Source of the DNA: Bacilli bacterium
Lineage (GTDB): Bacteria > Bacillota_I > Bacilli_A > RF39 > UBA660
Direction: 5' to 3'
Assembly: GCA_036653735.1 (NCBI GenBank)
Contig: JAVVTI010000001.1
Coordinates: 8,881 to 72,880 of the forward strand
Length of the DNA: 64,000 nt
Shown: piece after piece, positions 1,117 through 64,000 of the stretch
Numbering within the stretch: the stretch's first letter is position 1
Layout of the letters: the number at the start of each line of letters is the position of its first letter
Translations under genes and position numbers: made by a program
The notes under the pieces: model-generated
The model's input: the letters and a program-made list of their open reading frames with translations, nothing else
Database searches by the model: none
What the model was told of the DNA's origin: nothing

Positions 1117-1415
1117 AAACACCAGCTTAGCTATTTTTTTTTGATAATAACAGCCATATTAAAACCATCTGCCCCACTCCATTTATGCGACCCTACGATA
1201 TAAGATACCTCATGATTAGGGTGACTTATACGTGCGTCCTGCAATGTATGATATAGGTCGCTTCTCGGGTTTTCTGGGGCAATTTGCCCGTAAATTAAAC
1301 ACTTGTTCTCCACTCAAATTGTTATCTAAAATAATATCAAGGATTAAAGCTGCATTAAATAGACATTCTTTTTCTTCTTCCATTTTAAGCCTCTTTTCTT
1401 TTTTTTTAATTAAAT

Positions 1416-1715
1416 TTAGTCAAAATTAGCTTGCATATGAGCCTCAACTAGAGCGACCACTAATTTTTGTTCAATTTTTCCTAATTTTGATTGAGCTAAA
1501 TTTTCAATCAAAAAATCCACATCAAGAGGGTAATCTTTTGTAACATCTTTTGTATAGATAAACTCACCGTTACCGCCATAGGTAGATAAGTATTCTTTTT
1601 TGCTCTTAGCAGGTGTGATGGTCTTAAATACACTTTTCCCATCGTCGATTACGCTTTTAAATAATTTCATTTTTACGCCTCCTCTTTTTAATAAAAAACT
1701 AGTAAGTTTTCGCAC
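1416..1715 (-). CDS. Hypothetical protein
   Basis: 99-aa ORF. No motif recognised. Confidence 0.3.
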   Translation of the reverse strand: MRKLTSFLLKRGGVKMKLFKSVIDDGKSVFKTITPAKSKKEYLSTYGGNGEFIYTKDVTKDYPLDVDFLIENLAQSKLGKIEQKLVVALVEAHMQANFD

Positions 1716-2679
1716 TTTTTCCTTTTTTGTTCCTTTATTGTCTGTAATTTTTAAGACACAAAGTCCATTAATGTCTTTTAGTTTTTTTTTCTACCGTCTC
1801 ATTCATATTATTATTCTCCTTTCTTATTTTAAAAAAAACTAGAATATCTTTGCGGTAGCCGATTGGCTACCCACTGAATCACTAACTTATCAACTTGACA
1901 CTATCTTACCATATAAATTTTATCTTGCATATAGTAATATTGCACAAAGATTATAATAAAAACTGTACAATATTACTATAATCGGGTTTCTTCCATATAA
2001 AGGGATATAAATATAAATTCATGGATAACCCAATATATAGTTATCAGATAACGGCTTAAATTGCACCTCTCATATGTGATATAAGTCCAAAACAACTTGC
2101 CCTATACATTGTGCCATAAACGACTAAGACAGCTGCAAAGACCCTTTAAACACTTTATAAGGGCATGATATATAATAGTAATCATTCTTATTATCATCAA
2201 TAAATATACAATTAAAATAATTTAATATATAATCAAATAATATATAAAAATAGCTAAAAACAATTAGAATAATATATTTAATAAGCACAGATAGTAATGG
2301 GATATATATTACTTAGTATTTAATACTATGTGATAGAATTTAATAAGAAAAGAAATAGTATTGATAACTACATGGCAAGCTAAGGATTACTATATAGTGG
2401 AGTGTGCTGTTGGGGTTTTGTTACTATTAAAAAAAAGCATCTACATTACCTTTTTTCTTTTTTATCAAATTATGTCATTTTTCAGATTTTTTTTAAGTCT
2501 TACAAAAAGAACAAATGTTCAAAAAAAATATATAAGAAACATCGAACATATGTTCTATATTAAAAAAAACACTAAAATTGTTATTTTAGTGTTTTTTTTA
2601 ACATATAAAAATTTTTTTTGATTAAAATACCTTCCTTTTTTGCTTTTGTGCCAAGGGAGGGGGGTATTTTTCAAAAATA

Positions 2680-4651: not shown

Positions 4652-5593
4652 TTAAAATAATTTACAACCTTGTTCTTTAAATTTTTCAACTTGTTCTATC
4701 CAATCTTCTTTCGACCAACTAAGTTCTTCCATTAAACATTTTTTACACTTAAATTTATTAATTCCTCTTCCATACATTTTTAAATTCATTGCGACTACAT
4801 CTTTATGATAAACTGACTTTCCACAATAAACACATTTCTTTTTGAAATATTGTTCAGCCAGTTCCTTGTCTTCTAACCCCTTATATTCCATGAATTCTTT
4901 AATCGTTTCAGTGTTTGGAATATCTCTGAGTATTCCTCCGTTCCAATTTGAATGATATTCTGTACAAGTACAATTCATTCTACACCATTTTTCTTCTTGT
5001 TTAAATCCATCTTCTAATATTTTGTGGAATCTATCATATTGTTTAGGATAATAATAACTATCTAAAATCCATGTTGATTTAGTATAGTATGGGCAAGCGA
5101 TATGGCAACCTACCCTTGAATATCCATTTAAATATTTTTTATTAATTGGTATTTTATTATGAATTGTATATAGCCATAATTCTAACTCTGTCCATTTTCG
5201 TATAGGTAGGCAACCTATCCATGATTTATCTTCCCATTGAGGATTTCTGCAAATAGACCCATAATTTGAACGTGTTGAGGATTCTTCATTCCTCATTCCC
5301 ATAATAAAGAGTAAATTATTTATATTTTCAAATCTTTGTAAAGTTCCATTTTCTTTAAAAGTTGAGCAACACCATCGACGAAATCTTAAAGGAGTTCCAT
5401 GTATTTTAATCATATTATAGAAACTTTTATTCTTACCATTATTATCTTTTACTGTTACGATTTCAATATCATTTCTAGCTTTAACTTCTTTATACACATC
5501 TGAACTATCCAGTGTTGTATTATTAAAAATTGGCTTATAATTATTCGTTATTTTTTGCAATAAATATTCTGATAATTTACTATCTTTACCCAT
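4652..5593 (-). CDS. PP-loop ATPase / PAPS-reductase-family domain (DndC/CysH-like). The frame is open about 35 codons upstream with no ATG.
   Basis: PP-loop-like SMGKDS motif right at the annotated start; the upstream in-frame extension reads ...ILTTSMGKDS. Cys-rich C-terminus (CVYCGK ... CKKC). The frame stays open through the (CT)9 repeat into ORF 5646..5975. Confidence 0.55.
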   Translation of the reverse strand: MGKDSKLSEYLLQKITNNYKPIFNNTTLDSSDVYKEVKARNDIEIVTVKDNNGKNKSFYNMIKIHGTPLRFRRWCCSTFKENGTLQRFENINNLLFIMGMRNEESSTRSNYGSICRNPQWEDKSWIGCLPIRKWTELELWLYTIHNKIPINKKYLNGYSRVGCHIACPYYTKSTWILDSYYYPKQYDRFHKILEDGFKQEEKWCRMNCTCTEYHSNWNGGILRDIPNTETIKEFMEYKGLEDKELAEQYFKKKCVYCGKSVYHKDVVAMNLKMYGRGINKFKCKKCLMEELSWSKEDWIEQVEKFKEQGCKLF

Positions 5594-5645: not shown

Positions 5646-5975
5646 TTAATTTCTAAGACAGAAAGGCTCTCTCTCTCTCTCTCTAATAGATTTCTTTAAT
5701 CTTTGATAGGTTTCTTCCCAAGTTTCCAAATCTTTATTATCAGGTATATCAATTTCTTTATTTTTGTTATGTGTTTTATAATAATAAGAGTGTTCATAAG
5801 TCAAATTATTATATTCTCCAATAACTTTTAATCTACAAATTTTAATTTGTTTTCCATCTTTAGAAAACCCTTTTATAATCATTCTATCTATCCATAGTTT
5901 ATCTTCATCATAATTAGATAAATCTATTCCAAAACTTTTTAACATATTTCTATATGGTTTAAATATCGGTAGCAT
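5646..5975 (-). CDS. N-terminal fragment ORF ending in RERERE, encoded by a (GA)n repeat. Probably the 5' part of the PAPS-reductase-like gene, separated by a frameshift.
   Basis: 109-aa ORF. It stops just past the (CT)9 tract. The downstream ORF's frame is +1 relative to it and lacks its own start. Confidence 0.45.
   Translation of the reverse strand: MLPIFKPYRNMLKSFGIDLSNYDEDKLWIDRMIIKGFSKDGKQIKICRLKVIGEYNNLTYEHSYYYKTHNKNKEIDIPDNKDLETWEETYQRLKKSIREREREPFCLRN
5667..5684. repeat. (CT)9 dinucleotide simple-sequence repeat inside coding sequence
   Basis: ctctctctctctctctct counted directly in the sequence. Adding one CT unit would fuse ORFs 5646..5975 and 4652..5593 in frame. Confidence 0.9.
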
Positions 5976-6633: not shown

Positions 6634-6918
6634 CTATTTCTTTAAATCTATTTCGTCTATTCTATAATGAAATTTTATTAACCAAATAGGTGATTTATTT
6701 TTGCAAAAATCTTTATTTTCACTTACCTTAAACTTTTCACAAGGTTTATTATCACCCCCCCCATAAATACATTTTTCGCAAATAGCTTTTTCTAATTCTT
6801 TGTTTTTACTTATTATTTCTAGTCTTTCAATTTCTTTTTCTGCTTTTATTCTTTCATAATATGCATATGAAATACGTTCACCATAGGCATTAAATTCTAC
6901 TATCAGATAAATTTTCAT
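6634..6918 (-). CDS. Hypothetical Cys-containing small protein
   Basis: 94-aa ORF. Confidence 0.4.
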   Translation of the reverse strand: MKIYLIVEFNAYGERISYAYYERIKAEKEIERLEIISKNKELEKAICEKCIYGGGDNKPCEKFKVSENKDFCKNKSPIWLIKFHYRIDEIDLKK

Positions 6919-7766: not shown

Positions 7767-8240
7767 TTAGTTCACCCTTTCTGCATATTGATTTTTACTT
7801 GCTAATTTTACCCCTAACAATTTGTTATAAACATTTTTTTCGTTCGGTATATATCTTCCATATTTTATGATTATATTTTTATATGTTCCCAATTCTTTTA
7901 TTTTATCTTCAATTTCTTTTTTATAATAACCTGTATATATGACAATATCATTATCTGTTTTTTGTCTAAATACTTGAATTAAATTATATAAATCATTCCA
8001 TGAATCAAATGGTTCTAACCCACCACAGACAATCGCACTTGTTAAATTATTTTCTAAATATCTATTTACAATTTTATCAGTTGATATTTCAATGTTTGGA
8101 GAGGTTGCCAATTCCCCATTTTGGCAAACCTTTTCTCCACAATCTTTTTCACATTTAAAACTACAATATGGAAAAGCTATAAACATTGATGGTTTTTTGT
8201 AATTACTGAAATCTTCATCAACTAAATTTTTAATTATCAT
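7767..8240 (-). CDS. nrdG: Anaerobic ribonucleotide reductase activating protein (radical SAM)
   Basis: Cys cluster FPYCSFKCEKDCGEKVCQN resembling the NrdG radical-SAM cluster. Size 157 aa. Start overlaps the end of nrdD. Confidence 0.75.
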   Translation of the reverse strand: MIIKNLVDEDFSNYKKPSMFIAFPYCSFKCEKDCGEKVCQNGELATSPNIEISTDKIVNRYLENNLTSAIVCGGLEPFDSWNDLYNLIQVFRQKTDNDIVIYTGYYKKEIEDKIKELGTYKNIIIKYGRYIPNEKNVYNKLLGVKLASKNQYAERVN

Positions 8241-10149
8241 TTTTCATACCGGCATAAGAATACCACTGTCTTGTATTAAATTCTTTTTTCCTATCTTTTG
8301 AATATGAACGTACAGGCTCTAAAAATCCTACAATTCTTTGGTAAGTATCCATTACGTCACCACCACAAGTTGGACAAATATCTGTTCCCACAAATCCATG
8401 GTGGTTTGAACATTCATTAATTTTTGTGTTGAAAGCAAAATAAATAACTCCCGATTCTGCTATTTTATTTAACATTTCCCAAGCAACTTCTTCATTCGGG
8501 AAATTTTGTTCAATATTAATATGAGCAATTGCACCGCCTGAACATTTTTTATCTAAAATTGACGCAGTTCTAAGCTTTTCTTTAATCGTACAATTTTCTG
8601 ATAGTGGAATCCACTGGTTAGAATAAATGAATTTATCATTTTTTTCGTATAGCAAATTATCTTTTTGGCATAATATGACTGCGGCTCGTTCAGCTGGAAC
8701 ACTTTCAATATTTAATGAATATTTATCTGTAAAATTGTCTTTAATATTATTTAAAACATCAAATATATCACTAGCAAAATTCATACCATCTTCTGTATAA
8801 TATACATTTCCAAATTCATCTTTTTCAGTAAAACCAAAAGATTCAACAACTTCATACAATCCTAAAATTCCAATTGTATTATATTGCTTACTAAGTTCAA
8901 CACCTCCGTCACAATAATTTGGCAACAATCCTTTTTCAATATTTCTTGTAATAATTCCTCGAATAATATCTAATGTTTTACAACATAATATAGTTCTCTT
9001 TTTTAATAAAGCTAAATATTTATTTCTATCAAAATTTGTTTCATATCCAATTCTCATTAAATTGATAGTATTGACTTTAATTGAACCAATAGACAAAGCC
9101 GTACCACCGATAGAATTAATAAATCCGTCTAGTTTGTCGAACCCTGATAACAAACGACAACAATTTGATAATACACCAACATTATCACTCATAAAGAAGT
9201 TGCTATCATTCCATTTCATATTATGTTTAGAACACCATCTAGCAAAATCTTCATCTACAAATTTCCCACCTTTATATAATAAACTATACGTTAAAACAGG
9301 AAATGTAAATAAATTGCTACTTCTAATATCCGATACAACTTCCATAAACACTTTTTGGATTTCTATAATTTCGTCAATATAGTCTAATGCAAAAGTGCCA
9401 TCGGGAAATTCAGTTGAACCGAATAATGATTCTAAATATTCTCTGTCAAAAATTGAAACATTTACAAAAGCAGATTGGTCAATTCTAATAAATGGTTGAT
9501 TTAGTCTAAAAATAAACTTTTGAAAACTTTGTTTTAAGTAATAATCATTATTTTTGATTACATCGCCATTTTCACAATCTTTCTTCCAAAAATAAAAACT
9601 CCATAATAATACGTTTGGTAAACCACAAGCACCCGAACTTCGATTACTCATAAATGAAATAAATTCAATTACATCATCAAAGAATGTGGTTAAATGTTTT
9701 GGAGGTTGCTTATTATAATCATCTAAGAAGAATAACCCCTCTTTTGCTAATCGAGTTAAGTCGAACGCATAGCAATATGGTAAATAAGAACTTGTAGGTG
9801 CATCATGTAAATAAAACCCACCATTATATTCTGTTTCTAACCATTCCTTTGAAGTTTTTAACCCATACTTTTTCTTCATTTCATAAAATATTTTATTAAA
9901 CGCAAACAACTTATCTTCTGACTTTCCTTTTTCTGATATCATACTTCTGATATCTTTGTGTTTTGCGTTTGCGTTTGAATCAATCGTTGAATCAGCAACA
10001 TTCTTATCAACAAATCCTTCTATAAAATCTGAAAAATTTAATTGTGATTCATGGAAACCATTTAATATCTCAAAATCTTCCCCATACTTATTGCTAACTG
10101 TTTCAAAAGCTTTTTCAAAATCCTTGTTCATTTTAATTGGTATTAACAT
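8230..10149 (-). CDS. nrdD: Anaerobic (class III) ribonucleoside-triphosphate reductase
   Basis: 639 aa. C-terminal glycyl-radical region QRIVGFL and Zn-ribbon CPTCGGD, as typical of NrdD. Confidence 0.85.
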   Translation of the reverse strand: MLIPIKMNKDFEKAFETVSNKYGEDFEILNGFHESQLNFSDFIEGFVDKNVADSTIDSNANAKHKDIRSMISEKGKSEDKLFAFNKIFYEMKKKYGLKTSKEWLETEYNGGFYLHDAPTSSYLPYCYAFDLTRLAKEGLFFLDDYNKQPPKHLTTFFDDVIEFISFMSNRSSGACGLPNVLLWSFYFWKKDCENGDVIKNNDYYLKQSFQKFIFRLNQPFIRIDQSAFVNVSIFDREYLESLFGSTEFPDGTFALDYIDEIIEIQKVFMEVVSDIRSSNLFTFPVLTYSLLYKGGKFVDEDFARWCSKHNMKWNDSNFFMSDNVGVLSNCCRLLSGFDKLDGFINSIGGTALSIGSIKVNTINLMRIGYETNFDRNKYLALLKKRTILCCKTLDIIRGIITRNIEKGLLPNYCDGGVELSKQYNTIGILGLYEVVESFGFTEKDEFGNVYYTEDGMNFASDIFDVLNNIKDNFTDKYSLNIESVPAERAAVILCQKDNLLYEKNDKFIYSNQWIPLSENCTIKEKLRTASILDKKCSGGAIAHINIEQNFPNEEVAWEMLNKIAESGVIYFAFNTKINECSNHHGFVGTDICPTCGGDVMDTYQRIVGFLEPVRSYSKDRKKEFNTRQWYSYAGMKNDN

Positions 10150-20769: not shown

Positions 20770-22390
20770 GCCTATATAAGAAAGAGTTACCAAAACATTA
20801 TTGGACAGAGAATACTTTCTTTACAGATGGATATTTTGTATTAACAATTGGAGAAGTAAGTAGTAAAATGTTGAAAAGTATATAGAAAATCAAGGATAAA
20901 AGAGAAAATTAATAGCTAGGAAGGAAGTGATTGCAGATGCTAATAGCATATAAATACAGATTATATCCAAATAAGTCTCAACAAGAATATTTCTCAAAGT
21001 GTTTCGGTTGTGTGCGTTTCATCTATAATCATATGCTTTCAGATAAGATTGACTATTATAAAGAAACAAAACAAAAACTCAATAACACACCTGCTCAATA
21101 TAAAAAGGATTTTGAGTGGTTAAAAGAAGTAGATTCTCTCGCTCTTGCAAATACACAGATGAATTTACAAACTGCTTATAATAATTTCTTCAAACGTCCA
21201 GATGTGGGATTTCCGAAATTTAAAAGTAAGAAGAATAATCATTTGTCTTACACTACGAATAATCAAGGTGGGAATATCTATGTTTCAGACAGGTACATAA
21301 AACTTCCTAAAATTGGATTAGTTAAAGTTAAGAAACACAGAGATTTCAATGGTATTATCAAGTCTGTAACTGTTTCTAAGAATCCATCTGGTAAATATTT
21401 TGTATCAGTTCTAGTAGACCAAGAAGAAAAAGTGAAACTGCCTACTACTGATTCTAAAATTGGAATTGATTTAGGAATTAAAGAGTTCTGCATAACCTCC
21501 AATGGAGAAATGATTAAGAACCAAAAGTATCTTCGTAAATCTGAAAAGAGATTAAGTAAGTCGCAAAAGGATTTGTCTCGTGCAGTAAAAGGAAGTAATA
21601 ACAGAAATAAAGCAAGAATTAAAATTGCTAAAAAGCACGAAAAGATTGTGAATCAACGCAAAGATTTCTTAAACAAATTGTCTATAAGTATGATTCGTGA
21701 GAACCAAACAATTGCCTTAGAGACATTAAAAGTTAAGAATATGATGAGTAATCATAAACTAGCAAAATCTATAGCAGATGTATCTTGGAGTGAGTTTGTT
21801 CGGCAATTAGAGTACAAATCTAAATGGTATGGGCGAGAAATCGTAAAAATTGATACATGGTATCCAAGTTCACAAATTTGTTCTAACTGTGGGCATAAAG
21901 ATGGGAAAAAAGCATTGTCGATTAGAGAATGGACTTGCTCTAAATGTGGCACACATCACGAAAGAGATATAAACGCTGCAATAAATATATTAAACGAAGG
22001 ACTAAGGCAACTTATAGACTAAGGAGTAAGTAAGAAGTGTTGGAGCAACACGGATAGCCTGTGTAAACTTGTGCAGTTATGCATATTGAGCAGGAAACAA
22101 GCAAGTCTTTAGCTTGGTTGCGGTTCACATTAAATATTTCAGCCCTAATTGGTTAAAGGTTAAACCCAATGGTTATTGAATAGCACTTATCCACAATTAA
22201 AATAAATAGTGCTATAAACCACACGTTTTTACAGTATTGTGTGTTAAAAAATTAAAATTTACTGTTTGATTAAGTCTTTTACTGATGACAAAGGAAGAGT
22301 GAGATATCAATCCTAGTAAAATGATGGGATAGGATATCAAGATTTGTGGAGTTGGCTAAAGGATAAGTACCAATTGTCAAAAATCCTTAT
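20770..22390 (+). mobile_element. TnpB-only (IS1341-like) insertion element; boundaries approximate; structured right-end / omega-RNA region at 22023-22390
   Basis: TnpB ORF. A 370-bp GC-richer non-coding right end. The 9-mer GTCTTTAGC occurs near both flanks (20763, 22089). A 44-aa ORF (20627-20761) ends abruptly at the left flank. Confidence 0.4.
20931..22022 (+). CDS. tnpB: IS200/IS605-family accessory protein TnpB (OrfB, RuvC-like plus Zn finger)
   Basis: N-terminal [15 protein letters not shown] ..., a central RuvC-like region, and C-terminal CSNCGH ... CSKCG Zn finger. 363 aa. No tnpA adjacent. Confidence 0.9.
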
Positions 22391-54828: not shown

Positions 54829-55722
54829 ATGGGAAGAAATATATCAGAATTACACCCTGTTTTACAAACAAGATTAGAACAATTAAAAGAAATATGCAAT
54901 CAGCAAGGTTTAAATATAGGAATAGGAGAATGTTTCCGCACAGTGGCGGAACAGGACGCACTATATGCACAAGGACGTACAACGCAAGGGAAGAAAGTAA
55001 CTAACGCAAAAGGAAGTACCTATAGTTCACAACACCAGTGGGGAATCGCTTTTGACTTTTTTGAAAACGTTAAAGGACATGAATTTGAAAATATTTCATT
55101 TTTCAACCAAGTAGGAAATATCGCAAAGGATATTGGATTAGGTTGGGGGGGTGATTGGAAAAATCCAGTAGATAAACCGCACTTGTATCTTTCTGATTGG
55201 GGAAATACCACAAGTCAATTAAAAACACAGTACGGAACAATAGACACATTTAGGAATACTTGGAATAATAATCCAACAAAAGAAGAAATATCACAAGACC
55301 AAAATATTGGAATAAGTATAAATGAAACAATAAAAAATGGGCAAATTCATTCTAACAATTTTGCTAATTGTAATATCAAAGCAGATGGGATTTATGGAAA
55401 TCAGACTAAAAAAGCAGGTATTAAAGTATTACAACAAGGTCTTAATTTAGACTATAATTCTAATATTGCAGTAGACGGTATTTTTGGAAATGGAACACGT
55501 AATTCTTTAGGTAATCATAGTGTCAGATATGGTGAAAAGCAGTACATGGTTACCACACTTGAGATTTTGCTTATGCTGAAAGGATATAATCCTAACGGCG
55601 TAGAGTGCCCTGGTGTGTTCGGTAGAGGGTTAGAATCAACCGTGAGAAGATATCAATCAGCCCATGGACTTTCAGCAGATGGAATTGCAGGCGTAAATAC
55701 TTTCAAATCTTTAATTGAATAA
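54829..55722 (+). CDS. Endolysin: peptidase M15 (VanY / L-Ala-D-Glu peptidase-like) plus two PG_binding_1 repeats
   Basis: SQHQWGIAFDF and VDKPHLY are M15 Zn-binding motifs. C-terminal DGIYGNQTKKAGIKVLQQ and ADGIAGVNTFKSL are PG-binding repeats. Confidence 0.8.
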   Translation: MGRNISELHPVLQTRLEQLKEICNQQGLNIGIGECFRTVAEQDALYAQGRTTQGKKVTNAKGSTYSSQHQWGIAFDFFENVKGHEFENISFFNQVGNIAKDIGLGWGGDWKNPVDKPHLYLSDWGNTTSQLKTQYGTIDTFRNTWNNNPTKEEISQDQNIGISINETIKNGQIHSNNFANCNIKADGIYGNQTKKAGIKVLQQGLNLDYNSNIAVDGIFGNGTRNSLGNHSVRYGEKQYMVTTLEILLMLKGYNPNGVECPGVFGRGLESTVRRYQSAHGLSADGIAGVNTFKSLIE

Positions 55723-55772: not shown

Positions 55773-56321
55773 TTAATATATAAATTGATTTAATAAGTTA
55801 GATAGCCATCTGAAATTTATTACTCTCAAACCATTCCAATCTTTATTCCATTCACATATATTATAGGGGTTATTTTCAAATAATATTTTTATACTAGCAT
55901 TTGATTCTTTTAAATTTTTAGATGCATCGTCTATAAATAAATTATTTTTCATATCAATACAACTTTTTGATTTATTTAATGGCAATCCGATAAACTTAAT
56001 ATCACCTAAGCCATTATCTTCTAGCCATTCACCTTTTTGGACTAAATTCAATTCACCTCCTTTAGTGATAACGGTGATATCATCTATATTTTCTAATATA
56101 AATTCTTTTGCTCCATCTTTAAACTTTACCACTTCAAAGAATTGAGGACTATTAAATATTTCTTCAATGCTTTCATTCGTTTCATCTTTAAATATATTAG
56201 AAAAATTCCATGATGTAATATCTTCTTTCTTTGCATTCATACCATATTTTTTATTCAATATCTTCACAACTGTTTCAATAGAACCAATCATTACTTCGTC
56301 CATGTCTAAGTAAATTTTCAT
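55773..56321 (-). CDS. HAD-family 5'(3')-deoxyribonucleotidase-like protein
   Basis: N-terminal MKIYLDMDEVM (DxD HAD motif I). 182 aa. Typical of the NT5C family. Confidence 0.55.
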   Translation of the reverse strand: MKIYLDMDEVMIGSIETVVKILNKKYGMNAKKEDITSWNFSNIFKDETNESIEEIFNSPQFFEVVKFKDGAKEFILENIDDITVITKGGELNLVQKGEWLEDNGLGDIKFIGLPLNKSKSCIDMKNNLFIDDASKNLKESNASIKILFENNPYNICEWNKDWNGLRVINFRWLSNLLNQFIY

Positions 56322-56373
56322 TTTATATCTCCTTTGGTTTAACTGTATTTGTGTTTATCAATTTTAGCTTTGG

Positions 56374-56928
56374 TTAGGTTATCTTTAACTTATCAATTTT
56401 AATTTTGGTGAGATTATCTTTAGAAAAAGCTATTTCATCATCAATTGCTCTTCTATCAAATTCTGTTTTATCATAATCTCCTCTAACCTTACATCTTTCT
56501 AATCTTATCTCTAATGGAGCATTTAATAATATTGTATATACATTCTCTTTACCATAATAGTCTTGTAAGTCTTTACAACCATCTATGTCCATTATAACAA
56601 CGCTACTATGTCTTTCTAAGTCAATGCCATTGGAATACTTATTTAATCCATAATACCATGTGCTAGGAACATCATTTATCAATGTATTATAGGTTCGATA
56701 TTCTAACATTCTGTTATATTTAATCATTAACTTAAATTCTTCATCAGATACAAAATAATATTCTCTACCGTCCACTTCTCCTTTTCTCATAGGTCTTGTT
56801 GTGCAAGAAATAACTGGATAAATATTATGATACATTTCATCATTGCTCTCTAATATACATTGCATTAAAGTATCTTTGCCACTACACGATTTTCCTATAA
56901 TACAGATGATTCTATTTCCATTTCCCAT
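56374..56928 (-). CDS. Guanylate kinase-like nucleoside monophosphate kinase
   Basis: P-loop GKSCSGKDT. TTRPMRKGEVDGREYYFVSDEEF matches the guanylate kinase signature TTRxxRxGExxGxxYxFV. Confidence 0.7.
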   Translation of the reverse strand: MGNGNRIICIIGKSCSGKDTLMQCILESNDEMYHNIYPVISCTTRPMRKGEVDGREYYFVSDEEFKLMIKYNRMLEYRTYNTLINDVPSTWYYGLNKYSNGIDLERHSSVVIMDIDGCKDLQDYYGKENVYTILLNAPLEIRLERCKVRGDYDKTEFDRRAIDDEIAFSKDNLTKIKIDKLKIT

Positions 56929-57089: not shown

Positions 57090-59324
57090 TTAGTTGTCAA
57101 TACAATTTGGTATTAATTTTTGCAATAGACCTAGCAACCATGTTTTACGTAGCTTATTTTCATTTATCTTCAAAGCGTCTATAAAAGTTCCAATATCTCC
57201 AATATCTGTATGTGCTATCCTACATCTTGTATCAGCTACATATAATAGTTCTTTTGATAACATTCTAATATGTTGGTTAGATACAATGGATATACAATAA
57301 TCTACACTTGAACCTTGTGATGAATGAGTTGAGATAGCATATCCTAGTAATAGTCGATTCATTTTTAATTTATTAAAGTATAATAATTCTTCATCAAATT
57401 TTATGATTAAACCATCTTTTAAAACTTCCATAATTGTTCCAACTTGCCCATTTAACACGATTGAGGTTTCAACATCATCTTCTGATAAATAATCTTCTTC
57501 TTGCATTTTTTTATATCCATCATAAGTGGCGATAGAGTAATCATTCTTTTTATTAACAACTAAATCATTTACTCTGAACACAATTCCAATATTATTAATT
57601 TTTCGACTATGACAAACATCACCTTTTTTTGGTGGATTTATTTCTCCTTGTATCGCATTATTTAACGCATATGTACCACTATCCCCAACATTGAATGGTG
57701 ATAATATTAAAATATCATCACGATTTATTCCCTTATTTAACAGTCTTTTATATTCTGCTAAGGTTGTGTCAAAAACTTCATCTGTATTTATGAATTTGTA
57801 GTTATTTTGAATGGAATAATTATTCTCATTTTTGACTACCATTGAATTATCATCAAAGAAGTTAATACCTTTTCTAATATTGGTTGCGACAAATAAAGAA
57901 CCGTCACTTGTATATCTAAATATTTCGTCTAAAATGGTTTTTGGAACTCTATCAGATTCAATTAAATCAGTAAATATCTTACTCAATCCTATTGCAGATA
58001 ATTGTGCATGGTCACCAACTAATACGATTCTTACGTTTTTATTTATGATTGAATTTAATAACATTATAAATACATCTAAAGAACACATACTAGATTCATC
58101 AAGGATAACACAATCTGTGTCAATATCTCCGTTATAGCAACGTTTATGGACTGTACTAGCATCTCTATTCGTTGCTTGGCTTAATACTCTACTTGCCTTG
58201 CCTGTGGTTGACAATAAGGTATACGATAGTCCATTATCTTCCATTAAATTAACCAACCCTTTTACACTTGCACTTTTGCCACTTCCACTATAACCACATA
58301 ATATGCTAAAATTATACTTACAAAAATTTTCCAATGCGTTAAGTTGTAAATCTGTCATTTCAAAATCACCTAAGTTACCATACTTTTTATAGTCGATATC
58401 TAATACATTAGAGTTTTTTAACCTTTCTTCTATAAAATCAGCAATTCTGTATTCAGCGTTATAAGTTGACATTTTAGCTAAATCTTTTGATTCTTTGTCA
58501 AAATAAATTAGTTCGCTATTTTCTGCAACGTCTTTTACTTGTTTTAATAATTCGTCCATTCCATATTCATGTGCATAATAATATAAATCAGAACCATTCA
58601 TTCTTGATGAACCATCAATTTCATTTCGTCCTAGTATATCTAATTCCATAGATTCTATCCGTTGGAAACTATCTTTTAAGTCAGGTCTTATTCCTAATAA
58701 CATTTTATCAACTTTATCAAAAGAACGATTTAATACTTGTGCTAAAATATAATATGGACGGTCTTTAAAATTCTTTTCAATTCCATTATCATCAATAAAA
58801 TTTGTATAGAGTGTTTTACAATCAGTGACATTAATCTCATATTCTTTATATTGTTTAATTAAATAAAAATATTTATACTTTTCAAGTAAAATTCTTGCAT
58901 AACATTTGGCTCTAAATTCACCGACATTATATATTTTACTAAGGTCGATTTCTTCTAAACGATTATCTAATACCATTCTAACAAAATTAGGACAACCATC
59001 ATTCACATATTTTGCTTGAGTAGTGGTGGTTACAGATTGGAGAATACCTAATTCATCTTCTTCTTTAATATCCTCCAAACATTCAAGTGTAGGGCAATCT
59101 ATAATTTTATAAGACGTACCATACTTTGAAGTTTCTAGTTCTTCTACTACCAACTCGTATTCTTGTCCAATTGTAACCCAGCTTAATTCACCTTTACAAC
59201 TGAAATTAAAATATTGATTTACTTTTAATTCTCTATAAGTTCCGATAGGCACAAAAGTAATGATATAAAAATCGTTGTTGTGATACATCTCCCTCATTGC
59301 TTTAGCTTTAATCTTTAATGGCAT
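57090..59324 (-). CDS. RecD-like SF1 DNA helicase
   Basis: Walker A GYSGSGKS; DESSM; LVGDHAQL; STHSSQGSSVD helicase motifs. Confidence 0.75.
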   Translation of the reverse strand: MPLKIKAKAMREMYHNNDFYIITFVPIGTYRELKVNQYFNFSCKGELSWVTIGQEYELVVEELETSKYGTSYKIIDCPTLECLEDIKEEDELGILQSVTTTTQAKYVNDGCPNFVRMVLDNRLEEIDLSKIYNVGEFRAKCYARILLEKYKYFYLIKQYKEYEINVTDCKTLYTNFIDDNGIEKNFKDRPYYILAQVLNRSFDKVDKMLLGIRPDLKDSFQRIESMELDILGRNEIDGSSRMNGSDLYYYAHEYGMDELLKQVKDVAENSELIYFDKESKDLAKMSTYNAEYRIADFIEERLKNSNVLDIDYKKYGNLGDFEMTDLQLNALENFCKYNFSILCGYSGSGKSASVKGLVNLMEDNGLSYTLLSTTGKASRVLSQATNRDASTVHKRCYNGDIDTDCVILDESSMCSLDVFIMLLNSIINKNVRIVLVGDHAQLSAIGLSKIFTDLIESDRVPKTILDEIFRYTSDGSLFVATNIRKGINFFDDNSMVVKNENNYSIQNNYKFINTDEVFDTTLAEYKRLLNKGINRDDILILSPFNVGDSGTYALNNAIQGEINPPKKGDVCHSRKINNIGIVFRVNDLVVNKKNDYSIATYDGYKKMQEEDYLSEDDVETSIVLNGQVGTIMEVLKDGLIIKFDEELLYFNKLKMNRLLLGYAISTHSSQGSSVDYCISIVSNQHIRMLSKELLYVADTRCRIAHTDIGDIGTFIDALKINENKLRKTWLLGLLQKLIPNCIDN

Positions 59325-59429
59325 TTAATTTCCTCCTTATTCCAGTTTTGTACAAAACAAAACCACTCTTTTAATCTGATAAATAGATTATATCATGTAA
59401 GAGTGGTTCAGTCAATGATTATTTTATTT

Positions 59430-60143
59430 TTATTTTGTCCATTGTTCAGCCATGGCTTTGGCAATGCCAGGGAACGTTTTACTTCTAATCAACGCTCTTT
59501 CTTGTGGTGTTTTAGCATTTACTAGAGCGTCAAAGAACCATAACGGTTGACGTTTAATTTTACCAGTTTTCTTATCTGTCCATTCTTTAAATTCTCCTTT
59601 CCCAACTATATCTGTAGGAATTAAATTAGGTAAACCTTTTAACCAAAGACACGTTGACTTTTCAAATTCATCTCCAAATTCCCAAGGGTGAATTATTTGA
59701 CTAGATTTAATTGGGAATGAATATTTTTCTTGTAAATCTGGAAAATGCTTTGCTATATAATTCCCACTAATAATTCCAATTGGATTCTCAATTGCTATTT
59801 TATCACAATCAGCATTAATAAAGTTCATAAAAAATTCGATACCTTCTCTTTGCCTACCATCTTTCCGTTTCTTTTCAAAATGAGCCGCCCCACTTACTGC
59901 TAAATGAGTACATGGTGGAAATGCAATAATCATATCCCATTTCCCATTAATTTTATGTGAAGTTCCGTCAACTGTATTAAAACTACAATTTCCGTTTAGT
60001 AATGGTAGTACATTTTGTTTAATGTGCCATTCTTGCCCCCCCCCACTCTCATTGATTAAATCACATGAATAAGCTTTATGCCCTAGTTTTCTTAATTCTT
60101 TTGTTACCGCTTGACTTTCTTCACACGCAACTAATATTCTCAT
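59430..60143 (-). CDS. Divergent DNA (cytosine-5)-methyltransferase-like protein lacking canonical motif I. Likely true start MRILVACEESQ at 60143.
   Basis: FPPCTHLAVSG (PC catalytic-Cys motif IV-like) and IENPIGI (ENV-like motif VI). No FxGxGG SAM motif. Translationally coupled to the upstream Dcm gene. Confidence 0.4.
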   Translation of the reverse strand: MRILVACEESQAVTKELRKLGHKAYSCDLINESGGGQEWHIKQNVLPLLNGNCSFNTVDGTSHKINGKWDMIIAFPPCTHLAVSGAAHFEKKRKDGRQREGIEFFMNFINADCDKIAIENPIGIISGNYIAKHFPDLQEKYSFPIKSSQIIHPWEFGDEFEKSTCLWLKGLPNLIPTDIVGKGEFKEWTDKKTGKIKRQPLWFFDALVNAKTPQERALIRSKTFPGIAKAMAEQWTK

Positions 60144-61048
60144 TTTTTTATATCTCCTTTTATATTTTTTAAAATATGTGATATTATATCTACAGTCCAA
60201 CCGTTCCCAATTGCAGAATATCGCCTAGAATCTGACACATTATCAGTATAATTATCTGGCAATGTTTGTAATCTTTCATATTCTATTGGCATAAGTTTTC
60301 TAATTTTATTGTTTTGGAATATTTTTTTTACAAGATTCCCTCCATTCCCATCACACAATAAAGTATTACATTTATGATTTAATCCGTAGACTTCTTTTGT
60401 CTGTCTGTGTCCACTTAAATGGATTGTTGCTTTTACTTTTACGTCACCATCATGTATCGTTATTGGATATTTTGTATACCAATATTTTTTAGGCACATTT
60501 TCTTCTGGTTCAACAATATCTTTGAGTAAAATCCCTTGGTCAATGGGTTGTATTACATTTGGAATATTAGTCCAATATAATCGTTTTCTTTCTGCTGCAC
60601 AAACCAAAGACGAATTAATCATAATTGGCTCAACCCCAACTATTTCAGTTATTAAATTTTTCCATTTATTTTCCATGCTTGCCACATTTTCTAATAAAAA
60701 ATATTTTGGTTTCACATATTTTAATATTCTTATATAGTCATAGAATAAACCACTTTTTTCTCCGTTTAGACCGATTACTTCACCTCTATCATATTTATAA
60801 TTACTTAAATCTTGACAAGGACTTCCGCCTATAATAATATCTATTGGCATGATTTTATTTAAAGTTTCTTCTGTAATATTTCTTATATCTCCGAGTTGGA
60901 TTATATTAGGATAATTCTTTTTGCTAATTTTTATTGAATATTCATCAATTTCGCTTGCATAATAATTATCAATTTCATCTCTCTTTCTCTCTCTCTCTAA
61001 TGCAACCATTCCACAACTTATTCCATCAAACAAACTTAATACATTCAT
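60140..61048 (-). CDS. dcm: DNA (cytosine-5)-methyltransferase
   Basis: Motif I LSLFDGISCG; IV GGSPCQDLS; VI LLENV; X GNGWTVDII. Confidence 0.85.
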   Translation of the reverse strand: MNVLSLFDGISCGMVALERERKRDEIDNYYASEIDEYSIKISKKNYPNIIQLGDIRNITEETLNKIMPIDIIIGGSPCQDLSNYKYDRGEVIGLNGEKSGLFYDYIRILKYVKPKYFLLENVASMENKWKNLITEIVGVEPIMINSSLVCAAERKRLYWTNIPNVIQPIDQGILLKDIVEPEENVPKKYWYTKYPITIHDGDVKVKATIHLSGHRQTKEVYGLNHKCNTLLCDGNGGNLVKKIFQNNKIRKLMPIEYERLQTLPDNYTDNVSDSRRYSAIGNGWTVDIISHILKNIKGDIKK

Positions 61049-61160: not shown

Positions 61161-64000
61161 TTAATCTATTATAGAATACAATTTTAATATAGTTTCATAT
61201 TCTCCTGTATTTATCCAGTTTTCTTCTATCTTTTTTCTTTTTTCTTTAAACTCAAAAGCACAGTCCAATATATCTCCTTGTTTACATGGATAATCAGCAT
61301 ACCATTTCTTCGATACTTTATATGTATGGACATATCCAGTCCTAATTTCATATAAGGTTAAGAATGTATTTCCCCATTGATTCTTTTCTAATGATGCTAC
61401 TCCAAAATAATTGCAATCAGAATCTATGATATTAGTATAGCCCAATAGAATTAATTCATATTTAATTTTATCAATAGTTGTTGTCGGTTCAATTTTAGCA
61501 ACATCATACAACCTATTAATTAATTTGATATTGTCAATTTTTGTAAATGTTTTTTCTGTTTCATTATCAGAACATTTTCTGACAATATAATTCTCCATTT
61601 GAGATAATTTTTCTTTTTTTAATTGTTTTGATTTATAATACTTATTGTATAATTCTGTTAAGCATAATATATTATTTATCTCGCCAAATTCAGAAAAGTA
61701 ATTTAATCTTATTAAAATTCCGATACTTGTTGCATTCAATTCTGTATTTGATATTGTATCAATTAATTCTAATAATGATTCAAATTTTTTATCTTTTAAA
61801 TCATATAAAATATTAGGGGCGATTTTTTGGATATCTTTAATACTACTCATGTTTGGATATATAATTTTATTAGTTTCATTTACATTTACTTTTCTATTAT
61901 CATCTCGGAATTTATATTGCCCTATCTCATATCCATAGAACTCATTTGCTTCTTTTATTAATGAATCAATTTTGAGTTTATTATTTTTTAATTGGTAATG
62001 ATTAATAGCTACTTCATAAAATTTTGAAGTATAATGAGATTTGAACCATGCTAGATAAGCAGAATCACCTGCCATTGATAAAGCATGAGGGGCATTAAAT
62101 GAATACCTTGCAGACGATTCTATCACGTTCCATACCTTACTAAAATTATCTAAATTACCAATTTTTTCTAACCACCCTTTATTTAATTGCTCTTGTAATT
62201 TTTCTTTCTTTTCACCTTTTAATTTTTTCTTTGAAATTGATTTAATTACATCATATGTAGACCCCATTAACATACCTAAAAATCCTAATACTTTCATTAT
62301 TCCCTCTTGATATAATAAGAAGTGTTGGGAATCTTCTAATAATAAATCAATTGAAATTTCTCCTGTAGTATAAGTTTCTCTGTTCAAAAATACAGATAAT
62401 AATGTTGAAAAGCCCGGTCTTATTCCAGCTATAAAAGCAGATAATTCAGCTAAATTTTTAGGTTTATATTTTTTTACTTTATTAGTAGTTGATTCTTTTT
62501 CACATTGATTAATACAACAAGTGATTCCCTTTTCATAGACTCTCCATGTTAAAGAATCATTATTCACCATTTCTCTTAATTCATCAAAGGTTGGAACTTT
62601 TTTACCAATACTAGAAAAGCATTCTTCGATTAAGGAAACTGAATCTACAATTAAAAAATCATTCTTTACCATTTTAAAATCATCTAAATAAGAACCCTCA
62701 ATGCAAGCACATAATGTTCTTTTTTTAGTAGTTTCAGAAACGGCACTAATTAAACCCACTTTTCTTCTTATATCCCCTTCCATTAATAAATGACCACAAG
62801 TATGGCATTTTAAATTAATAATAATGCTTTGATATTCGATACTTTCTTTATATAATTGAATATATTCTGATGGAATAAAATCCTCTATAACAATGAATTC
62901 TTTATCTTCTTCATCAGCATACATTTTTTTATCATTATATGAATCAATACACTTTGAAATTTCATTAGAAATATCTACACTAATTCCTTTTGCTCCCGAG
63001 TATAATTGCCATGCCGATTTTTCTTTTAATTTCTCTATAGCCATAAGGGGATAACAACTTTCTTCCCCTATTACAATTCTTGATGCTTTCAAGAATGGTT
63101 CTTGCTTTGCTATATTAAAATCACAATCAGGCATTTGCCCAGACTGTATTCTTTCTTTAGTTAAAAATCTTTCGGGATAAATTGGTATTTCTGAATTAAA
63201 TCTGTCAATTGTCGTAAACCCTAATAATTTATTAATGTAGAAGGATGACATACTCCCTCTCGATGTTGTTGTCAAAATCCCACCTTGATTTTCGATTGCT
63301 TCCTTTAATATCTTTCTATTAGTCAAAAAGTAATCTACTACTCCACTATCAACGATTTGAGTTACTTCATATATAATTCCATTCTTTCTTTCTTCATTCC
63401 GAATTGGTTCTTTTCTATATTCTTCATTTAATATATCTTTAAATATTTTTACTCGTTCATCATAGGTAGTTTTCGGATAAGCAATTGGAATTTTAAATTC
63501 TTTATCAAATACAATATTATTGCATTCTGTCACAAATATATTAGTATTCATCATTGAAGTCAAAATTTCTTTATCGGATAGAACACCTTGTTTTTTGAAT
63601 CTATTATAAATTTCTTTACTGTTCGGATAATCTAAATACCACCCATTTTCATCTGCATATTCAATTTTTTTATACTTCAATATTTGGTTTCTTTTTATAT
63701 CATCTAATTCATAACTTATATAATGGCTATCTAATCCACATATAATTTGAATATCATTCTCTTTAGATAATTGTAGAATATGTTTGTTTAATTCTTTTTG
63801 TTTATCTGTATTATGGTTCTGTACCTCAAAGAAAAAATGATTCCCAAAATAACTTGCTATTTTTAGCCATATATCATCTGCATCTTCATATTTCCAACCA
63901 GCTATACAAGCAGATGTAATTATTATTTCTTTTGGGTTCAAGGTAAATAACAACTCTAAATCAATTCTTGGTTTATAATAATATCCATCAATATTAGCCA
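61161..64000 (-). CDS. dnaE: DNA polymerase III alpha subunit (DnaE-type), N-terminally truncated by the window edge
   Basis: FNAPHALSMAGDSAYLAWFKSHY resembles the DnaE signature FNKSHSAAYAL..AYLKAHYP. PHP-like N-region. The frame stays open upstream of 63953 to the window end. Confidence 0.8.
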   Translation of the reverse strand, partial: ANIDGYYYKPRIDLELLFTLNPKEIIITSACIAGWKYEDADDIWLKIASYFGNHFFFEVQNHNTDKQKELNKHILQLSKENDIQIICGLDSHYISYELDDIKRNQILKYKKIEYADENGWYLDYPNSKEIYNRFKKQGVLSDKEILTSMMNTNIFVTECNNIVFDKEFKIPIAYPKTTYDERVKIFKDILNEEYRKEPIRNEERKNGIIYEVTQIVDSGVVDYFLTNRKILKEAIENQGGILTTTSRGSMSSFYINKLLGFTTIDRFNSEIPIYPERFLTKERIQSGQMPDCDFNIAKQEPFLKASRIVIGEESCYPLMAIEKLKEKSAWQLYSGAKGISVDISNEISKCIDSYNDKKMYADEEDKEFIVIEDFIPSEYIQLYKESIEYQSIIINLKCHTCGHLLMEGDIRRKVGLISAVSETTKKRTLCACIEGSYLDDFKMVKNDFLIVDSVSLIEECFSSIGKKVPTFDELREMVNNDSLTWRVYEKGITCCINQCEKESTTNKVKKYKPKNLAELSAFIAGIRPGFSTLLSVFLNRETYTTGEISIDLLLEDSQHFLLYQEGIMKVLGFLGMLMGSTYDVIKSISKKKLKGEKKEKLQEQLNKGWLEKIGNLDNFSKVWNVIESSARYSFNAPHALSMAGDSAYLAWFKSHYTSKFYEVAINHYQLKNNKLKIDSLIKEANEFYGYEIGQYKFRDDNRKVNVNETNKIIYPNMSSIKDIQKIAPNILYDLKDKKFESLLELIDTISNTELNATSIGILIRLNYFSEFGEINNILCLTELYNKYYKSKQLKKEKLSQMENYIVRKCSDNETEKTFTKIDNIKLINRLYDVAKIEPTTTIDKIKYELILLGYTNIIDSDCNYFGVASLEKNQWGNTFLTLYEIRTGYVHTYKVSKKWYADYPCKQGDILDCAFEFKEKRKKIEENWINTGEYETILKLYSIID

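Follow-up and report, generated by a model that had tools for sequence, protein, structure and literature searches.

A widespread phage family of small C5-cytosine-methylase-fold proteins with a replaced motif I, encoded beside a canonical methylase in a Bacilli genome

The stretch analysed here (64,000 nucleotides of contig JAVVTI010000001.1, positions 8,881 to 72,880, assembly GCA_036653735.1, from a Bacilli bacterium; hereafter the window) carries two overlapping open reading frames (ORFs): ORF1, a canonical C5-cytosine DNA methyltransferase, and ORF2, a methylase-like protein that has the residues ACEESQ at the place of motif I, the S-adenosylmethionine (SAM)-binding loop. The locus raises the question of whether ORF2 is an enzyme in its own right, and with which co-substrate, or an accessory to ORF1. 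The reading that we prefer, and to which we assign about an even chance on the evidence of sequence comparison, is that ORF2 is an autonomous, active, SAM-dependent C5-cytosine-modifying enzyme that protects phage DNA from restriction. The protein belongs to a clade of mini C5-cytosine-methylase-fold proteins of ~200–240 amino acids (aa), very large and spread over phages and prophages, here termed the ACEESQ clade. The features on which the argument turns are as follows.

60140..61048, minus strand: ORF1, canonical C5-cytosine DNA methyltransferase, 302 aa, matched by PF00145, TIGR00675, PHROG 116 and the PADLOC type II methyltransferase models
59430..60143, minus strand: ORF2, C5-methylase-fold protein, 237 aa, matched by PHROG 757 (ACEESQ clade)
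60140..60143, minus strand: start/stop overlap of ORF1 and ORF2, ATGA (ATG at 60143..60141 over TGA at 60142..60140), read from the sequence
60154..60159, minus strand: AAGGAG ribosome-binding site of ORF2, 10 nt upstream of its ATG and within the 3' end of ORF1, read from the sequence
60111..60128, minus strand: codons 6–11 of ORF2, A-C-E-E-S-Q, in place of motif I (F-x-G-x-G) according to a gap-free hhalign alignment to the 'ELFAGSRS' mini-methylase
59910..59918, minus strand: Pro76-Pro77-Cys78 of ORF2, motif IV with the catalytic nucleophile, Cys78 aligning with Cys82 of mini-Dcm
59781..59789, minus strand: Glu119-Asn120-Pro121 of ORF2, motif VI (ENV-like), Glu119 aligning with Glu128 of mini-Dcm

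Family membership and nearest relatives of ORF2

Judged by its sequence, ORF1 is an ordinary C5-cytosine methylase. It matches PF00145 (E = 1.2e-38), TIGR00675 (dcm; E = 4.8e-37) and PHROG 116 (E = 5.7e-57), and motifs I (LFDGIS), IV (GGSPCQDLS), VI (LLENV) and X (GNGWTV), which had been recognized in a preliminary description of the locus, can all be read in it. The mechanically called ORF2 begins at a TTG codon at 60200. The ATG at 60143, named in the same description as the likely start (MRILVACEESQ), was adopted because the N-termini of family members read M-K/R-I/V-L-V-A-C-E-E-S-Q and because an AAGGAG sequence lies at 60159..60154; it gives a protein of 237 aa ending at 59430 and the overlap with ORF1 that had already been noted.

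Residues 1–236 of ORF2 align to positions 15–219 of the 247 positions of PHROG 757, annotated as 'DNA methyltransferase' (E = 2.6e-56). ORF2 is thus a further member of an existing, uncharacterised family that databases already label as methyltransferase by similarity. The family comprises at least 8000 clusters at 90% identity, all 8000 scored candidates being significant, and 3958 representatives at E ≤ 1e-3 in a 50%-identity library; the best 120 of the 90%-identity clusters are 67–100% identical to ORF2. Members are found in isolated phages of Cellulophaga, Flavobacterium, Vibrio, Burkholderia, Acinetobacter, Arthrobacter, Ruegeria, and Acaryochloris and in many Clostridia and Bacteroidota genomes, and the family spans phages of Firmicutes, Bacteroidota, Proteobacteria, Actinobacteria, and Cyanobacteria. 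A copy is also present in a 5.6-kb Microviridae record from pig faeces (MG945386.1; locus L081), at 1274..1846 between VP1 and VP2. This copy is cut short behind TCLW, in a record flagged as UNVERIFIED; it was not used as evidence. No homologue of its VP1 was found in 80 IMG/VR loci, small contigs included, and the copy may represent either a real acquisition or an assembly chimera.

Profile comparison places the family next to small methylases with a normal motif I. With hhalign, the ORF2-family profile matched LeonhardEuler bas13_0055 (234 aa, motif I LFDGSG; probability 99.45%, E = 4e-22), Fulano1 gp55 (236 aa; 99.4%, E = 3e-21), RudolfGeigy bas52_0074 (99.4%), and the 'ELFAGSRS' mini-methylase (97.4%, E = 1e-11), the last of which itself scores above the PF00145 cut-off. 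In a tblastn search, ORF2 matched Dhillonvirus gp45 over residues 1–234 (E = 1e-6). The catalytic-domain three-dimensional fold of ORF2 is that of C5-cytosine DNA methyltransferases, and its link to solved methylase structures runs through fold comparison, not through sequence search.

The comparisons indicate that the ACEESQ clade is probably sister to the mini-Dcm proteins of Drexlerviridae and other enterobacterial phages. One such protein is the Dcm encoded by a 711-bp gene of the KarlJaspers-like Hanrivervirus phage K42. A preprint on retron Ec86 has reported, from liquid chromatography-mass spectrometry, that it puts 5-methylcytosine (5mC) on multicopy single-stranded DNA at CCWGG, and that a C82A/E128A/K175A/K176A mutant loses activity (10.1101/2023.08.16.553469). 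Fulano1 gp55 is likewise a 711-bp Hanrivervirus gene and has C82, E128, K175, and K176, and K42 Dcm is therefore taken as the nearest characterized relative of ORF2; its placement in the Fulano1 gp55 clade was made by gene length and residue numbers, not from its own sequence. Mini-Dcm genes are carried by Drexlerviridae, Dhillonvirus, and Vequintavirus phages, and the K42/KarlJaspers Dcm triggers retron Ec86. Like ORF2, the mini-Dcm proteins are of ~235 aa and are encoded by orphan genes in replication modules, and the two groups share the motifs AFPPCT(D/H)LAVSGA, I-E-N-P, K-x-T-C-L-W, and R-S-x-T-x-x-G-x-A, with C82, E128, and K175 of mini-Dcm corresponding to C78, E119, and K162 of ORF2. 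They differ in motif I (SLFDGSG in mini-Dcm, VACEESQ in ORF2), at the motif II position (Asn and an invariant Asp28, respectively), and in the connection between strands beta2 and beta3; moreover, mini-Dcm is the only one of the two with known activity (5mC at CCWGG).

Canonical C5 methylases (PF00145; M.HhaI, M.HaeIII, and ORF1) are more distant, with ~12% identity to ORF2. They have the motif I glycines, an R-x-R at motif VIII, a target-recognition region of ~100 residues, and a helix between beta2 and beta3, whereas ORF2 has no glycine in motif I, K-x-T at motif VIII, and ~40 residues in the region matching the target-recognition domain; in place of the helix it has a conserved S-G-G-H-P-E-W loop.

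Catalytic residues and the cofactor site

Residue conservation was counted over 325 ORF2-family sequences. The catalytic-Cys and ENV-like motifs pointed out in the preliminary description are near-invariant: Cys78 is present in 323 of the sequences, Glu119 in 321, and Asn120 in 320. The Val of motif VI is replaced by Pro in ORF2, as it is in mini-Dcm. At motif VIII, the Q-x-R-x-R of canonical enzymes is not present; ORF2 has K162-S-T164-C-L-W instead (Lys in 312 sequences and Thr in 304), and the active mini-Dcm clade likewise reads K-K-T-C-L-W there. The acidic residue of motif II, Asp28, is kept in 312 sequences, and position 44, in motif III, is Asp in 285 and Asn in 22, including ORF2 of the window (Asn44). 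These two residues were assigned to motifs II and III by their place in the predicted strands and by alignment to the ELFAGSRS mini-methylase.

Strand beta1 of ORF2 is not followed by a glycine-rich F-x-G-x-G loop, in agreement with the earlier observation that ACEESQ stands where FDGxGG should be. The gap-free hhalign alignment of the ORF2 family with the ELFAGSRS clade pairs Phe with Cys7, Ala with Glu8, Gly with Glu9, Ser with Ser10, and Arg with Gln11; an ungapped by-eye alignment to mini-Dcm sequences pairs Phe, Asp, Gly, Ser, and Gly with the same five residues. The loop is itself conserved (Cys7 in 307 of the 325 sequences, Glu8 in 309, Glu9 in 280, Ser10 in 303, and Gln11 in 280), and its variants are few: Tyr (12) or Phe (9) at position 9, and Gly (27) at position 11. 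A minor subclade with C-E-(Y/F)-S-G includes Bcep1 gp12 and Anjali gp1. Since the replacement residues are near-invariant, the motif I loop of the clade is, as far as its sequences tell, replaced and not eroded. Glu8 is a conservative counterpart of the Asp in F-D-G; the real changes are a Cys where Phe stood and the absence of the two glycines. The initial characterization of ORF2 as lacking the SAM-binding motif I therefore holds for the canonical motif, and alignment of the SAM-contacting residues bears out that the protein is without the full conventional set; to say that it lacks SAM binding goes beyond the evidence, given that the residues of motifs II and III are retained.

We infer the catalytic competence of ORF2 from the intact set of residues for covalent catalysis and from the homology to an active 5mC methylase. 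In the proposed mechanism, ORF2 would flip a cytosine out of phage DNA, Cys78 of Pro-Pro-Cys would attack C6, and Glu119 of Glu-Asn-Pro together with Lys162 would hold the base. A one-carbon group would then be added at C5, the donor most likely being the methyl group of SAM. The latter would be held in a remodelled pocket that retains the ribose-binding Asp28 and the adenine-binding Asp/Asn44 and has Cys-Glu-Glu-Ser-Gln in place of the glycine loop. Such a modification would probably serve to protect phage DNA from host restriction. Fold, homology, and conservation are established by the comparisons given here; the DNA cytosine substrate, the SAM donor, and the biological role are what we infer from them.

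Several observations weigh against SAM-dependent methylation by ORF2. The PF00145 profile, suggested earlier as a check, matches ORF1 and not ORF2: at E ≤ 1, ORF2 has no match to PF00145 or TIGR00675, and no Pfam, NCBIfam, or PADLOC model recognizes it. Among PDB sequences, ORF2 alone found only noise, and the family profile found none at E ≤ 10. Both glycines of F-x-G-x-G have given way to the near-invariant Glu9 and Gln11, and the adenine-stacking Phe to the invariant Cys7. In class I methyltransferases, the first glycine of motif I packs against SAM, and bulky residues at this position could block canonical SAM binding. A conserved, non-degenerate replacement of the loop is as compatible with a new function as with a SAM site that has been remodelled. 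The short region matching the target-recognition domain and the unusually high uniformity of the family (67–82% identity among the best 120 clusters), unlike methylases that diversify in specificity, also count against it. In the literature, we found no paper on the FPPCT motif or the ACEESQ clade, no test of any clade member, and no description of a clade that conserves C-E-E-S-Q in place of motif I while its catalytic residues are otherwise complete.

A second explanation, which we consider a serious but clearly less probable one, is that ORF2 uses the same covalent Cys-C6 chemistry with another co-substrate or none, adding a non-methyl group at C5 or, via the 5,6-dihydro intermediate, carrying out deamination or transamination at C4. 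The substitution in motif I is near-invariant and not degenerate, and Cys7, Ser26-Cys27-Asp28, and the SGGHPEW loop are specific to the clade and absent from its SAM-type mini-Dcm sisters. C5 methylases deprived of SAM catalyse cytosine deamination and aldehyde addition, which we count in favour of this explanation. A donor switch also has a precedent in a phage C5-methylase homologue: CmoX (PDB 8YF3) is a phage DNA cytosine C5-carboxymethyltransferase that uses carboxy-SAM, keeps the usual aromatic and acidic SAM contacts (Phe25, Glu47, and Asp69), derives its specificity from Arg350 in motif X, and is encoded by genes accompanied by a CmoA gene (PMC12783734). However, the switch in CmoX relies on that single motif X Arg and on the co-encoded CmoA, neither of which is evident for ORF2. 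Arg220 and Lys222 of ORF2 lie near the motif X helix and are at most candidate equivalents of CmoX Arg350, and no recurrent extra methyltransferase-fold gene that could be a CmoA-like partner was found among 150 flanking genes of the family or in the neighbour clusters described below. CmoX has SPPC where ORF2 has FPPC, and ordinary methylases are at least as close to ORF2 as CmoX is. The retained adenosine-binding residues of motifs II and III also speak for SAM, and Glu8 is no more than the counterpart of the F-D-G Asp found in ORF1 and mini-Dcm.

Two further explanations accept the methylase fold and change the target or the outcome. Modification of RNA instead of DNA, e.g. of a conserved tRNA or rRNA cytosine in the manner of Dnmt2, would suit both the very high conservation across phages of five phyla and the very short target-recognition region, each of which fits a single universal substrate. 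We regard it as improbable, since the nearest tested relative, mini-Dcm, acts on DNA and since ORF2-family genes lie in replication modules, sometimes beside DNA methylases. More improbable still is a non-catalytic DNA binder or decoy that flips bases, possibly forms a stable covalent complex, and thereby blocks host defence. The missing canonical cofactor loop allows such a role, for which we found nothing specific; it has no precedent and no PADLOC model match, and it sits poorly with a conserved full catalytic set and conserved motif II and III residues.

Neighbouring genes: partner and co-substrate

The ATGA overlap and the missing canonical motif I suggested that ORF2 might be an inactive or regulatory paralog of ORF1, comparable to DNMT3L, or a target-recognition subunit coupled to it by translation, and both roles had been put forward in the preliminary description. 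The paralogy was overstated. The best BLASTP match between ORF1 and ORF2 had E = 0.24 and was confined to 13 residues of motif IV, and hhalign of the ORF2-family profile against ORF1 gave a probability of 7%, by which a recent common origin of the two genes was rejected. DNMT3L shares with ORF2 a methylase fold with a non-canonical cofactor loop, and the ORF2 gene, in addition, stands beside an active-type methylase. In DNMT3L, the catalytic residues are lost and function depends on a partner, whereas the catalytic Cys and Glu of the ORF2 family are near-invariant and its members mostly stand alone.

The neighbourhood was sampled in 80 IMG/VR viral loci with 6-kb flanks. In an iterative search seeded with ORF1, another C5-methylase-like ORF was found within 6 kb in ~14 of these loci, and none in the remaining ~66. 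A Pfam scan of 150 immediately flanking genes gave four matches to PF00145 and three to other DNA-methylase families. No neighbour family recurs in more than 5 of the 150, the most repeated being replication proteins (DnaA-like helix-turn-helix, DnaB, and D5-type primase), and the commonest cluster of neighbours in the 80 loci is a 435-aa protein present in 17. Among the 27 genes of the 19.7-kb Arthrobacter phage Anjali, the ORF2-family member is the only annotated methyltransferase. ORF2 also has its own ribosome-binding site, and in two assemblies of the same phage as that of the window it is intact and identical while ORF1 is frameshifted. Family members do lie directly beside another C5-methylase-like gene in five loci (L003, L005, L010, L023, and L048). 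With a stand-alone distribution established in this way, a partnership of ORF2 with ORF1 is not supported, and an inactive, regulatory, or target-recognition role is very unlikely; the two genes may be adjacent because phage methylase genes tend to cluster, which would imply no mutual need.

Tandem arrays of two to three different mini C5-methylase-like genes (~200–235 aa) were observed in L010:5300-6642, L023:4494-6660, L038:5899-7912, and L048:5995-7226. In these arrays, ACEESQ-type genes are accompanied by genes with a normal motif I, of the 'ELFAGSRS' or 'NLYAGIGGN' type, and L010 shows the same 4-nt overlap as ORF1 and ORF2.

The neighbourhood also bears on the use of another co-substrate. 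Genes similar to phosphoadenosine phosphosulfate (PAPS) reductase, which have a PP-loop, occur within a few hundred bases of ORF2-family members in ~8 of 160 loci (L001, L049, L063, L100, L118, L120, L155, and L158). In one 547-aa protein (P0254), a PP-loop domain is fused to an ORF2-family domain that has G-D-T-Q-Q at the motif I position, and the window itself encodes a PAPS-reductase-like PP-loop gene. This adjacency and fusion may reflect a functional link to the ORF2 family, which we regard as a weak lead; the association concerns only ~5% of loci. Genes for cofactor synthesis do not recur next to family members and are absent from the minimal phage Anjali, so that any donor must be a universal host metabolite.

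A more far-reaching form of the co-substrate explanation, which we hold to be rather unlikely, is that the ACEESQ clade constitutes a new class of phage DNA-modifying enzymes without canonical SAM use, in which Cys-C6 attack is coupled to another donor or to exchange at C4. The C4-exchange version would be the enzymatic equivalent of bisulfite chemistry, and the PAPS-reductase-like PP-loop ATPase might act as a helper in some phages.

Genomic setting, simple repeats, and significance of the family

Flanked by genes for DNA polymerase III alpha (63953..61161) and a RecD-like helicase (59324..57090), ORF1 and ORF2 form part of a replication module. The phage or prophage that carries it is AT-rich (27.9% GC) and belongs to a Bacilli metagenome-assembled genome. 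Three further features are located in this region.

60986..60997, minus strand: (AG)6 tract, ORF1 codons 17–21, just after motif I; length-polymorphic between assemblies, with ~0.004 such tracts expected in the window
60036..60044, minus strand: G9 homopolymer (GGG GGG GGG), Gly34–36, beta2-beta3 loop of ORF2; expected number of nine-base runs ~0.003
59387..59415, minus strand: promoter-like site, TTGACT, 17 nt, TG-TATAAT; 11 of 12 positions, a consensus match only

The promoter-like site is the top-scoring one in the region and is located downstream of ORF2, ahead of the RecD-like helicase gene.

Simple repeats were counted throughout the window (G/C runs of at least 6 and dinucleotide repeats of at least 5 units), expectations being derived from base composition. 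They are rare: four G/C runs and two dinucleotide repeats were found, and three of the six lie in or immediately next to modification-related genes. In ORF1, the window and L088–L090 have (AG)6, and L086 (NCBI GCA_036647175.1; L086:4517-4530) and L087 (Logan; L087:3934-3947) have (AG)7. The longer form, present in two of six assemblies, shifts the frame of ORF1, which cuts motif I off from the remainder of the protein; no other difference occurs across 1750 aligned bases. The tract may thus be a phase-variable on/off switch for the methylase.

The G9 run of ORF2 consists of three GGG codons, GGG making up 13.5% of the Gly codons in the phage, and has the same length in all six assemblies. It appears to be specific to this phage, relatives reading S-G-G-H-P at this place. 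The third repeat, (AG)9 at 5684..5667 on the minus strand, lies between a 109-aa ORF (5975..5646) and the PAPS-reductase-like gene (5593..4652). The latter probably lacks its N-terminus, because its match to PHROG 424 begins at profile position 169 of 460, and the PP-loop motif TTSMGKDS straddles its annotated ATG, with homologues aligning upstream of that codon. An (AG)10 tract would join both ORFs as one protein of 444 aa, so that the repeat seems to split a single gene; its length is the same in three other assemblies. Only the ORF1 tract was seen to vary among assemblies. The pattern suggests phase-variable DNA-modification genes in a phage: as both methylase-type genes and the PP-loop gene have rare repeats, modification of the DNA of this phage might be subject to phase variation. 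The other G runs include a G8 at 6755..6762 (G on the minus strand), in a 94-aa ORF (6634..6918) with no family match, and a G7 at 55145..55151, in an endolysin gene (54829..55722).

Genetic code 4 was rejected and code 11 kept, because TGA does not occur inside the real genes of the window and TGG codons are frequent in them. In L086, one of the assemblies with the longer tract, the ORF1 gene call of the public record (L086:4499-5386, 295 aa) passes through its TGA, as under translation table 4, and table 11 fits better.

Elsewhere on the minus strand of the window (7767..10149 and 55773..56928), the phage has genes for nucleotide metabolism that accompany those of the methylases. They encode an anaerobic ribonucleotide reductase (NrdD), an adjoining 4Fe-4S single-cluster-domain protein that is presumably the NrdD activase, a guanylate-kinase-like protein, and a 5'-deoxynucleotidase (NT5C). 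A TnpB/IS605 OrfB-type gene at 20931..22022 (plus strand), with OrfB_IS605, Cas12f1-like TNB, and HTH_OrfB_IS605 domains, is placed between an HU-like DNA-binding gene and the phage late genes.

The family to which ORF2 belongs, with its thousands of clusters and its occurrence in phages of at least five bacterial phyla, is among the larger phage protein families without a curated model, and its database labels ('DNA methyltransferase' and 'SAM-dependent methyltransferase') rest purely on fold. If ORF2 is a methylase, the glycine loop held to be diagnostic of SAM binding can be replaced wholesale, and the protein would be a very compact cytosine methylase, likely of simple specificity and a possible tool. 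If it uses another donor or chemistry, the family would represent an unrecognised, widespread DNA modification, perhaps missed by current sequencing and restriction assays. In either case, the answer for ORF2 would carry over to thousands of genes.

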